Positions 22,648 through 50,923 are shown, numbered from the stretch's first letter. The stretch is 51,118 nucleotides of DNA from Octopus sinensis (GCF_006345805.1 NW_021833785.1:1-51118); one strand, 5' to 3'. The notes: generated by a model from the letters alone, not told the origin. Made by a program: numbers and translations.

Positions 22648-22850
22648 TCACCGTTCATCTGAGAGACATTTAAGGGCATCAAAGCACTCAGCATCTCGAA
22701 GGGCTTTTCTGAGAGTCTCAACTGTACGTTCCTCTGGTTTACAATTTATAAACCACTCACAAAGCATTTGATAACTCTGTTTTACTGTGTCATGAGGAAA
22801 ATCGTTCTTGATAATATCCTGGTCAATTGCTGAAACTCCTAGAAAACATC
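22648..22850 (-). CDS. Terminal exon, death domain helices 2-6
   Basis: TTTTGCAG acceptor, phase 1; (G)[66 protein letters not shown] then stop; LG...I...Q.YQML.EW...T...L..AL death-domain pattern. Confidence 0.85.
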
Positions 22851-49800: not shown

Positions 49801-50923
49801 ATCATCCTCATCATCATCATCCTCATCATCATCATCATTATCATCATCATCATCCTCATCATCATCATTATCATCATTCTCATACTCATCATCATCATCA
49901 TCCTCATCATCCTCATCATCGTCATCATCCTCATCATCCTCATCATCATCATCCTCATCCTCCTCCTATCATCATCACCATCATCATCAGCAGCAGCAGC
50001 ATCATCATCATCATCATTATCATTATCATCAACTTCATCCTCATCATAATTATCATCATAATCATCATCATCATCATCATCATTATCATTATCATCATCA
50101 TCATTACCATCATCATTATCCTCCTCATCATCATCATCATCCTCATCTTCATCATCTTAGTGAGTTTTCCAGTATTTAAGTTCCATACTTAGGCACACAC
50201 ACACACTGAACGTAAAGAGTCGTAAATAAAATAACACAATTTATTTTCTCTAAAAGTAATAAGAAACAAGAACTGGAGAAAAGAAGGAAGACAGTTTATT
50301 AAAGGAACCCCTGGGTATTACTGGTACAGATTATATTGACCCCAGAGTGATAGTAAATATTCTGGTAGGATTTGAACATGGAACATAAAAGAGACAAATG
50401 TAAATTACTGTAAGGGGATATTCTCTATTTTAGCCCACGGTCGGAGTAAATAGGGAAACTACAAAGGAGAGAGAGTGAGGAAGAAAGAGAGAAAGTAGTT
50501 CTAGATGGAGGAGGAAAGGAAGAGAGAGAGGATTTGAACTGTGACGTGAGAGGAAATGAGAACGAGATGACGTAAAGTGTCCAGTCAGGCAACAACAATA
50601 ACAATTATGGTGAGATTAATTAATAAAGTAGATTACAGTGCGAAAGAGAGAAGAAGACAATGACCCCTGGTGGGATTATGACATGAATGACTGAATGAAA
50701 AAGAAACAAACATTATTGAAAACATAAAAGAAACAGATTTGGATATTCCAGATCCAATGGGGACTTACCACTGAACTGCCACATGCAGTGGTGTGTCTCC
50801 ATCGTTGTTCACAACATTGGCATCAATGCCATTGTGACCCAACAAAATTTCGACAGTGTGCAAGTATCCCAGATAACAGGCGAAGTGCAGCGGTGTGCGA
50901 CCATCATTAGACCGTGCGTTGAC
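22648..50923 (-). CDS. Multi-exon gene (5' incomplete): ankyrin repeats - RING-HC - death domain; MIB2-like E3 ubiquitin ligase family
   Basis: Ten exons joined with compatible phases: 50769-50923, 44784-44937, 41165-41319, 40153-40189, 36748-36960, 35001-35177, 32415-32554, 31248-31298, 25209-25280, 22648-22850. Two 1-nt frameshifts in the 35001-35177 exon and two doubtful donor sites. Confidence 0.85.
23770..24075 (+). mobile_element. Highly degenerate RTE LINE remnant
   Basis: AAGGGCAGATTGTATGATGCA and TGGATGTGTAATG match the LINE at 4980-5110; paralogous to 30200-30470. Confidence 0.6.
25209..25280 (-). CDS. Exon, start of death domain
   Basis: TTTCAG acceptor and GTGAGT donor, phase 1-1, 72 bp: (E)[23 protein letters not shown]; the A..LG.NW motif joins the terminal exon in frame. 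Confidence 0.85.
25840..26185 (-). mobile_element. Degenerate Tc1/mariner transposase fragment
   Basis: Frameshifted translation [26 protein letters not shown]...[22 protein letters not shown] corresponds to the QQD.AP.H and WPP.SPD.NP.DY..W motifs. Confidence 0.75.
26960..27350 (-). mobile_element. RTE 3' end / SINE tail remnant
   Basis: Minus strand encodes [23 protein letters not shown], the GRPRKTW...DL end of RTE ORFs, followed by tail-like sequence. Confidence 0.55.
27760..28200 (-). mobile_element. Degenerate non-LTR reverse transcriptase fragment (Hero/NeSL-like)
   Basis: Broken peptides [27 protein letters not shown] and KDKPI*RLGRW resemble RT motifs of Hero-type elements; clade assignment is from memory. 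Confidence 0.55.
29590..30170 (-). mobile_element. RTE LINE RT fragment
   Basis: [26 protein letters not shown] (decayed YADD), [11 protein letters not shown], then the same Cys-rich insert and YLG motif as 4620-4900. Confidence 0.85.
30200..30470 (+). mobile_element. Degenerate RTE remnant, paralog of 23770-24075
   Basis: Shares GATATGGGAGG..TGGAAGATA..GAAGT.CCAGGA.ATCCA..GTTAAA.CTG.CAAAGGAC with 23950-24070. Confidence 0.6.
31248..31298 (-). CDS. Putative 51-bp linker exon (paralog of the 25209-25280 exon)
   Basis: TTTCAG acceptor, phase 1: (E)[16 protein letters not shown]; the expected donor reads TTGAGT instead of GTGAGT. Confidence 0.5.
32415..32554 (-). CDS. RING-HC (C3HC4) exon
   Basis: CCACAG acceptor and GTAAGA donor, phase 2-1; CLLC-x11-CEH-x3-CEEC-x7-CLRC with the PC.H...C..C spacing of MIB/IAP-type RINGs. 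Confidence 0.9.
32976..33026 (+). ncRNA. Minimal type I hammerhead ribozyme motif
   Basis: Stem I CCAGTA/TGCTGG; core CTGAAGA(32982-32988); stem II G(T)GGC/GCCC; GAAA(33005-33008); stem III ACCAG-AC-CTGGT; GUC triplet at 33018-33020. Confidence 0.8.
33330..33620 (+). mobile_element. tRNA-derived SINE, near full length
   Basis: A box TGGCCCAGTGG, B box GTTTCGATTCC; flanked by (TA)n; homologous to 19345-19502. Confidence 0.8.
33740..34050 (-). mobile_element. 3' end of a CR1-group LINE
   Basis: Frameshifted minus-strand peptides [43 protein letters not shown] resemble CR1-type ORF2 C-termini. Confidence 0.55.
35001..35177 (-). CDS. Exon with last ankyrin repeat; two 1-nt frameshifts
   Basis: TTTGTAG acceptor and GTAAGT donor; [57 protein letters not shown]; one A is needed at ~35162 and one at ~35071. 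Confidence 0.75.
36748..36960 (-). CDS. Ankyrin repeat exon
   Basis: Phase-0 acceptor; [53 protein letters not shown]...; 3' boundary uncertain (36748 or 36751). Confidence 0.85.
37398..37505. repeat. (TA)n plus (GA)n microsatellite
   Basis: Read directly from the sequence. Confidence 0.95.
37604..37863. mobile_element. MITE-like element with 18-bp inverted ends and a ~100-nt internal hairpin
   Basis: TTGACCCGTGTTGCATCG vs CGATGCAAAATGGGTCAA (16/18 complementary); internal foldback at 37642-37743. Confidence 0.6.
37950..38157. repeat. (CA)n/(CATA)n compound microsatellite
   Basis: Read directly from the sequence. Confidence 0.95.
38320..38825. mobile_element. Old foldback/MITE with long imperfect inverted repeats
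   Basis: GCCTAAGACCTCTTCCAAATATGGAGGGTGGAAAAGCC (~38404-38441) is complementary to GGCTTTTCCCCTTCCATATTTTGAAGAGGTCTTAGGC (~38696-38732); weaker complementarity extends both ways. Confidence 0.7.
39160..39512. repeat. (GATA)n/(GACA)n microsatellite
   Basis: Read directly from the sequence. Confidence 0.95.
40153..40189 (-). CDS. 37-bp micro-exon completing an ankyrin helix
   Basis: TTTCAG acceptor and GTTAGT donor, phase 2-0: (R)[12 protein letters not shown]; bridges the flanking exons in frame. Confidence 0.75.
40579..41510. repeat. Recent duplication, copy 1 (pairs with 50206-51118)
   Basis: Colinear near-identity starting at CTGAACGTAAAGAGTCGTAAAT; offset about 9.6 kb. Confidence 0.95.
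41165..41319 (-). CDS. Ankyrin repeat exon (155 bp, phase 0-2)
   Basis: [54 protein letters not shown] acceptor, GTAAGT donor. Confidence 0.92.
41655..41830 (-). mobile_element. SINE 3' portion (octopus-type)
   Basis: CAGTCATGTGACTGTGGCCATGGTGGAGCAC...ATCGACCCCAGT...TACTTATT; a related reverse-oriented piece lies at ~39730-39850. Confidence 0.6.
42649..43099. mobile_element. MITE with ~125-bp TIRs, GG...CC termini and 8-bp TSD (Merlin- or Mutator-like)
   Basis: GGTCAACCTAAAGCGTTGACCCGGTCATAAAACAAAC... is inverted at ...GTTTGTTTTATGACCGGGTCAAACACTTTAGTTTGACC; AGGAGAGG is duplicated at 42641-42648 and 43100-43107. Confidence 0.88.
44167..44510. repeat. Degenerate (TA)n tract
   Basis: Read directly; another (TA)n tract lies at ~43805-43905. 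Confidence 0.9.
44784..44937 (-). CDS. Ankyrin repeat exon (154 bp, phase 2-0)
   Basis: (W)[54 protein letters not shown] acceptor, GTTAGT donor. Confidence 0.9.
45008..50156. repeat. 5.1-kb interrupted (ATC)n/(GAT)n trinucleotide array, intronic
   Basis: Read directly; variants TCC, TTA, ATA and ACC interrupt it. Confidence 0.97.

Follow-up and report, generated by a model that had tools for sequence, protein, structure and literature searches.

The closest described systems to the gene reported here are the Mind bomb (MIB) ubiquitin ligases, the signaling proteins RIPK1 and IMD, and fungal NLRs with ankyrin arrays. In a study of human MIB1 (10.1101/2024.03.01.582834), RING3 is the only RING reported as required for activity, for which it uses P993, I994, and R996; a dimer-forming C terminus is needed as well, a fragment of the ankyrin repeats and RING1–2 lacks self-ubiquitination, and the concave ankyrin face is highly conserved. 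For MIB2, PMC7815719 reports that mutation of the first RING leaves cFLIP ubiquitylation intact and that the second RING is needed, and in PMC12137711 IMD and RIPK1 are described as having a death domain in common. The present gene lies on the minus strand of a 51,118-nucleotide stretch of Octopus sinensis DNA (GCF_006345805.1 NW_021833785.1:1-51118; hereafter the window, which is the entire 51 kb contig G000:C10256 of a 2.72-Gb genome) and joins MIB2-type ankyrin and RING exons to a death domain of the RIPK1/IMD type. The octopus ANK-RING-death family to which it belongs is real and apparently undescribed: it was not described in the octopus and cephalopod literature searched, a search that left subscription papers and supplements outside its reach, nor in the accessible text of PMC13218726 or PMC10138644. 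We consider it likely, with a probability of about 0.6, that the family consists of variable intracellular sensors built from MIB2 ankyrin and RING exons and a RIPK1/IMD-like death domain. How cephalopods recognize pathogens without antibodies is poorly known, and a positively selected candidate receptor family carried under the label "MIB2-like" offers genes, six binding-site codons, and a predicted signaling domain for its study. Database relatives do bear that label, as suspected in an initial reading of the window from its bases alone (the sequence-only reading).

Like MIB2 and MIB1, the octopus gene has an ankyrin array with a long insertion near its end, a RING of the penultimate type, and the intron positions and phases of octopus MIB2. 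In contrast to these ligases, the MIB-HERC2/ZZ and SH3-like modules are absent from the full-length paralogs P0004, P0005, and P0008, which start at the first ankyrin repeat; the coiled coil and the terminal catalytic RING are missing, the gene ending with death-domain exons Dn and Dc and a stop; and the family has more than 50 copies with a hypervariable groove, as opposed to the conserved face reported for MIB1. Its C-terminal profile has RIPK1 as its best match in the PDB, and its two-exon death-domain layout is that of octopus kinase-less RIPK1-like genes, but it has no kinase or RHIM-like region and carries the death domain behind ankyrin repeats and a RING. Podospora NACHT-ANK NLRs, as described in PMC4986451, are similar in their positive selection on inner helices and hairpins, repeat-number variation, inter-repeat recombination, and attached signaling domain, whereas full-length octopus members scanned by Pfam have no NACHT or NB-ARC, their repeats lie on separate exons, the effector is a C-terminal death domain, and the origin from MIB2 is independent. 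By these features the octopus family stands outside both the MIB family and the NLRs, yet its ankyrin array evolves like that of a hypervariable repeat receptor, the conserved MIB ankyrin face having turned hypervariable. ANKDD1A/B, ankyrins, and DAPK1 are likewise single proteins in which ankyrin repeats are combined with a death domain at the C terminus, but they are low-copy, conserved, and not known to carry a RING, ankyrins having ZU5-UPA and DAPK1 a kinase and ROC-COR.

Nine minus-strand exons running from 50923 to 22648 (Table 1), with AG acceptors throughout and compatible phases, encode a predicted protein in which seven ankyrin repeats and part of an eighth are followed by a C3HC4 RING and a death domain. 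Read by eye, seven TPLH-type motifs fall in exons B1 to C and an eighth in D. When Pfam was run on single exons, six of 11 stretches scanned matched Ank, RING, or Death families, with best Ank E values of 4e-15 (B1), 2e-7 (A), 1e-14 (B2), and 6e-8 (C), zf-C3HC4_3 on the RING exon at 1.3e-7, and Death on exon Dc at 2.1e-6, the last two exceeding the curated cut-offs. Eight of eight zinc ligands are kept in C3HC4 spacing. Exon E, detected by way of paralog P0011, is required because the frame from B2 to C depends on its 37 nt. The sequence-only reading had proposed at least seven ankyrin repeats, one RING-HC, and a C-terminal death domain, with a Pfam scan as a check; exon phases bear this architecture out, and the scan found all three domain types. 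Gene models with all three domains are P0004, P0008, and P0015 (weak Death) among 14 proteins scanned by Pfam, and P0016, P0021, P0025, P0026, P0027, P0028, and P0049 among 42 scanned.

Evidence for splicing came from runs X2 and X3, which were judged by guess to be likely RNA and were read as contigs, in which near-identical paralogs are indistinguishable. When four runs were compared over 22000-37050, joints C-D, D-RING, and Dn-Dc were present in X2 and X3 contigs, with the C-D joints carrying a paralog-type open frame, and no contig with these joints was found in X1 or X16. A direct GT-AG joint from RING to Dn was detected in one X2 contig when X2 and X3 were compared over 25150-32600, and was not found in X3 over the same interval. 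This contig is in agreement with the proposal that the RING exon is joined to the death-domain exons. X2 and X3 also join the RING to a linker exon that is missing from the window, as other paralogs do. Linker exons have the same flanking sequence as Dn at both acceptor and donor and look like duplicates of it; 14 isoforms of one paralog vary in the linker only.

The C terminus is a death fold, as first read. In addition to the Pfam match, a profile search with the C terminus placed death domains at the top of its PDB matches, that of RIPK1 being the best (E 1e-8), and a model of P0004 shows six helices at 382–459, with the predicted local distance difference test (pLDDT) score of this block mostly about 90. 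About 3 Mb from MIB2, at C26:23.37-23.40 Mb, lie two kinase-less genes with relatives named RIPK1-like. In both, the last death-domain exon is entered in phase 1 and the split falls at the same glycine as in the window, and the one checked in full has a phase 1-1 first death-domain exon, as in window Dn. The last exon of the window death domain is about 50% identical to those of octopus kinase-less RIPK1-like genes. An Atlas search gave matches all under 0.9, with a death domain in none of 10 among the matches listed, an absence that carries no weight. The C26 cluster (L213-L216), in which an Asn/Ile/Gly-rich stretch precedes the death domain, is itself a candidate for octopus IMD. A separate gene of O. 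bimaculoides, P0063, encodes an LRR-GPS-7TM adhesion GPCR with a C-terminal death domain related to that of this family.

Full-length MIB2 is located at G000:C26:20.27-20.32 Mb, and a MIB1-like N terminus at C13. MIB2 and the window share the edges and phases of exons C (0-0), D (0-2), and RING (2-1), and in MIB2 the terminal RING follows in the next and last exon, which is entered in phase 1. In a RING tree of 45 columns, with many forks open, terminal RINGs form a group (10 rows, support 95/93) and the window RING falls inside a clade of 17 octopus penultimate-type RINGs (96/96). Intermediate forms were also observed, P0055 and P0058 being ANK-RING-RING proteins without the N terminus and P0123 an SH3-ANK-RING protein. 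The 90 kb analyzed at C13 did not yield the octopus MIB1 C terminus, so the choice of MIB2 over MIB1 as parent is based on the MIB2 exon match and alignment in place of a two-way tree. Derivation from MIB, an early suggestion, is supported by the shared exon structure, the RING clade, and the alignment. The window gene as the MIB ortholog itself was rejected, full-length MIB2 lying elsewhere and many paralogs being present; with 128 death-exon matches in the genome, the gene is, as anticipated, not a single-copy ortholog. Judged from sequence comparison, the MIB2 last exon with its catalytic RING is replaced by the two-exon death domain common to kinase-less RIPK1/IMD-like genes, for which the simplest account would be that exons were shuffled at the phase-1 intron that follows the RING. 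The birth of the gene would be traceable in these steps: a ligase of the Notch pathway was stripped of its substrate module and its catalytic RING, and a death domain was acquired at a single intron.

The window RING reads C-L-R-C-L and lacks equivalents of the E2-contacting Pro, Ile, and Arg of MIB1 RING3. Because MIB1 and MIB2 activity needs the terminal RING and these residues are missing here, ubiquitin-ligase activity of the window RING is doubtful, and with it the coupling to ubiquitination that had been proposed for a RING now placed in the penultimate MIB class. Some family members may be active ligases, to judge by their RING motifs.

To detect selection, site models M2a and M1a were compared with our own codon-model script. 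For exon B, 65 full-length matches were reduced to 56 distinct gap-free copies (three with indels and six duplicates dropped), for which twice the log-likelihood difference (2dlnL) was 207.7, with omega of 5.96 on 12% of 51 codons; the six selected codons (Table 1) carry up to 10 residues each. Values elsewhere were 39.4 for exon C (20 copies), 8.7 for the RING exon (16 copies), and 3.5, not significant, for the death exon (16 copies). The death domain is under purifying selection, and omega for the RING exon is 0.57 overall. Since recombination inflates the site-model test, neutral simulations with free recombination were run; the highest 2dlnL of eight was 49.3, one run being without convergence, and exon B alone exceeds this null. 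A tree-free comparison gave exon B diversity of 0.120 versus 0.027 in the 100 bases of intron that adjoin it at either end (33 copies), and death exon diversity of 0.283 versus about 0.27 in flanking intron. When the six selected sites are placed on the model of P0004 (pLDDT 89), five map to the first, inner helix of a repeat or immediately next to it and the sixth to the loop that follows; PMC4986451 reports selection on the same face of fungal NLR ankyrin arrays. A single-sequence fold of P0001 was poor (pLDDT 49). Fold searches with P0004 were dominated by ankyrin matches, among them the MIB1 ANK structure 8V0E. The selection on exon B and its diversity excess over the introns agree with the variable recognition array that the sequence-only reading had envisaged.

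Family size was estimated from match lists that are lower bounds, many contigs being short. The death-domain exon has 128 genomic matches among 145 candidates and exon C at least 150 among 339, with 51 for the RING and 91 for exon B; the paralog count proposed at the outset as a check thus stands at 128 death-exon matches in this genome. In an upstream survey of 112 death exons (16 degraded tandem fragments on C1 excluded) and 124 of 150 C rows (the 26 dropped being unrelated ankyrin-array rows and one duplicate), a family C exon was present within 40 kb upstream on the same strand in 53, a RING in 24, and both in 19. Forty-nine of the surveyed death exons lie on chromosome-scale contigs, with C29 and C27 together holding 31 of them. 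When 1.84 billion proteins were searched with a profile, the octopus ANK-RING-death family ranked on top (150 rows, of which 30 were looked up). Among the 30, all named ANK-RING-death proteins come from Octopus sinensis, O. vulgaris, or O. bimaculoides, and five named non-Octopus rows, one from Argonauta, match via death domains only. The original description of the protein as a cephalopod one thus holds within the genus Octopus, the source of every named protein of this layout, and is wider than the range covered here; the family may range beyond Octopus.

Several further arrangements accompany the family. Tandem arrays of degraded family fragments occur at G000:C1:41.73-41.77 Mb and C1:107.08-107.10 Mb, in which about 1.7 kb separates exon C from the death exon and stops are present. 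In compact paralogs L094, L095, and L096 (C12769, C29:0.77 Mb, and C10426) the RING exon is followed directly by Dc, the linker and Dn being absent; the death domain is truncated, and the RING exon opens with a stop in two aligned. The O. vulgaris models P0013 and P0014 continue from ANK-RING into a long unrelated tail in place of the death domain, which may be a second fusion or a gene-model merge.

In the proposed mechanism, ligands that are diverse and probably foreign would bind in the groove of the ankyrin array, and ligand-bound receptors would cluster. Clustered death domains would then nucleate a RIPK1/IMD-type complex that recruits cell-death or immune adaptors, with an output of the FADD/caspase-8 or NF-kB type, as would be expected from general knowledge of RIPK1 and IMD. 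The RING in this subfamily would be mostly a structural relic, and repeat number would change by crossover inside shared (CAT)n arrays. Of the sensor, E3, and signaling receptor first envisaged, the variable sensor with a death domain is supported by the selection and the death fold, and the E3 part is doubtful. A wider formulation, which we hold tentatively and at somewhat short of even odds, is a germline repertoire in octopus of 50 to 100 or more DARPin-like intracellular immune receptors, with MIB2-derived ankyrin exons diversified on the binding side and exon pairs reshuffled by crossover at intronic (CAT)n arrays, wired to a RIPK1/IMD-type death domain without an NTPase switch.

The sensor reading competes with an unlikely one in which the proteins are active E3 ligases whose diversified substrate array targets foreign proteins for degradation, much as expanded TRIM families do, and whose death domain supplies the dimerization lost with the MIB coiled coil and terminal RING. 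The complete set of zinc ligands and the low RING omega are as expected of functional ligases, P0020, P0021, P0025, and P0027 read C-P-M/I-C-R like the active MIB1 RING3, and the dependence of MIB1 on a dimer-forming C terminus, in the account cited above, is in keeping with a substitute dimerizer. However, the lack of self-ubiquitination by MIB1 ANK-RING1-2 and the intact activity of the MIB2 first-RING mutant, both from the papers already cited, argue against ligase activity from a RING of this class, as do the missing Pro, Ile, and Arg equivalents in the window and the loss of zinc ligands in some members (P0005 and P0028). Octopus gene expansions are often neural, and the 14 isoforms of one gene vary in the linker only; both points could suit self-recognition or regulation outside immunity (neural wiring or gametes), or decoys titrating MIB2 or RIPK1/IMD-like partners, with diversity arising from self-ligands or from drift among recombining paralogs. 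We regard these roles as distinctly improbable, in view of selection concentrated on six codons of the groove, where as many as 10 residues occur per codon, alongside a death domain under purifying selection, and because a decoy whose host partners do not change should conserve the surface that binds them.

A number of observations weigh against the variable-sensor reading or parts of it. The exon C (39.4) and RING (8.7) signals fall within the recombination null, and dN/dS, taken pairwise across all of exon B, is 0.96. A test at 11 DARPin-type positions was weak, nonsynonymous pN (0.259) being barely above their own synonymous pS (0.234). Exon B synonymous diversity, at about 0.13, is approximately five times that of adjacent introns (0.02-0.03; copies L101-L170). 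B-A-B was found in no fetched protein, each protein that matches B having one B, and the repeat-number variation comes from five unplaced contigs of one assembly. The RING-Dn joint is present in one of two likely-RNA runs, and a near-identical paralog may be its source. Regarding the death domain, Pfam found no RHIM in the putative donor genes at C26, and the death-domain tree leaves the donor unsettled (root support 46/92). With respect to the RING as a relic, Arg still follows the last Cys in at least eight of 29 family RINGs identified by pattern, four of them reading C-P-x-C-R, some of the matches being mis-registered.

Table 1 Exons and associated features of the ANK-RING-death gene in the window
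Feature	Position	Strand	Phase	Remarks
Ankyrin exon B1	50769..50923	-	0 to 2	Extra copy of hypervariable exon; 90% identity with B2
(CAT)n array, 5.1 kb	45008..50156			Inside B1-A intron; likely crossover or mis-join point
Ankyrin exon A	44784..44937	-	2 to 0	Pfam Ank
Ankyrin exon B2	41165..41319	-	0 to 2	Codons 9, 14, 17, 18, 20, 48 positively selected (56 copies)
Ankyrin micro-exon E, 37 nt	40153..40189	-	2 to 0	E-C loose end in run X2
Ankyrin exon C	36751..36960	-		Edges as in octopus MIB2; donor shifted three bases and weakened
Exon D	35001..35177	-		Encodes the repeat 7 insertion helix plus the capping repeat; reading frame disrupted in the assembly by three indels (net +1)
C3HC4 RING exon	32415..32554	-	2 to 1	Penultimate-MIB type; Leu replaces Arg after last Cys
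Linker pseudo-exon K	31252..31299	-		Intact acceptor; GT absent at family donor position
Death-domain exon Dn	25209..25280	-	1 to 1	Helices one and two
Death-domain exon Dc	22648..22850	-	1 to stop	Last four helices

As assembled, this copy does not encode the complete protein. The frame ends at codon 244 because of the exon D indels, which were identified by comparison with nine of nine aligned paralogs, and the N terminus is missing because the contig ends 195 bases upstream of B1. We consider the copy somewhat more likely to be intact with assembly errors than to be a pseudogene. The exon D indels lie in short base runs, and single-base losses also break near-identical RING copies on other small contigs, which is a pointer to consensus error; the eight exons other than D are open with intact acceptors, and the paralog-type open frame of the C-D joints in X2 and X3 contigs is as expected of an intact gene. 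A lesser, though substantial, chance is that the copy is a pseudogene or assembly chimera, with D truly frameshifted and B1 derived from a different paralog through a false join in the 5-kb (CAT)n array. Besides the three indels in D, the exon C donor is unlike that of the paralogs compared, and the two strictly private window indels in 34400-36050 both fall in exon D, with none in 1.5 kb of intron. The copy is also a mosaic in its affinities, the RING being 100% identical to copies on C11333 and C12007 and the death exon nearest to other contigs (90%), and its B-A-B arrangement is the one that no fetched protein shares. Against this alternative, two or three B exons with the same intron junction are also present on four other contigs, and the X2 RING-Dn joint is what the window layout, without a live linker exon, predicts.

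Ankyrin exons in the window follow the order B-A-B-E-C, and most mapped loci have a single B. The four further contigs with two or three B exons were chosen for their several B matches. A multi-kb triplet array is present in the intron after exon B at 11 of 13 other family loci examined, and triplet arrays also precede exon A. Given arrays in both positions, the B1-A intron can be read as a composite that begins as a B-E intron and, past a junction within the array, ends as the intron that precedes A. The extra module may have arisen from unequal crossover within shared (CAT)n arrays or from mis-assembly.

Several candidate features of the gene were rejected. Linker exon K is not taken as part of the protein, having no live donor and being bypassed by the RING-Dn joint in X2; near-identical paralog copies of K are likewise without a GT donor. 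Open frames at 26530-26679 and 31625-31726 had no Pfam match and no relative match among the rows listed. Mutually exclusive ankyrin exons were dismissed as well, a short A-type exon separating adjacent B-B pairs and the 14 isoforms of one paralog varying in the linker only.

Elsewhere in the window, positions 5777-18888 are a 13-kb tandem array of a 69-bp pyrimidine-rich unit in about 181 copies, with long spurious open frames. A minus-strand fragment at 2332-2667 contains three C2H2 zinc fingers, of which the first is partly disrupted, repeated at an 84-bp period. Two related fragments that resemble decayed retroelements, probably LINEs, and contain a PHD-like finger occur at 4564-5311 (plus strand) and 29574-30108 (minus strand), are 77% alike, and are inverted with respect to each other; Pfam found no reverse transcriptase in them. 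Three tandem copies of a 188-bp unit lie at 363-938, and part of this unit recurs at 43496-43575.

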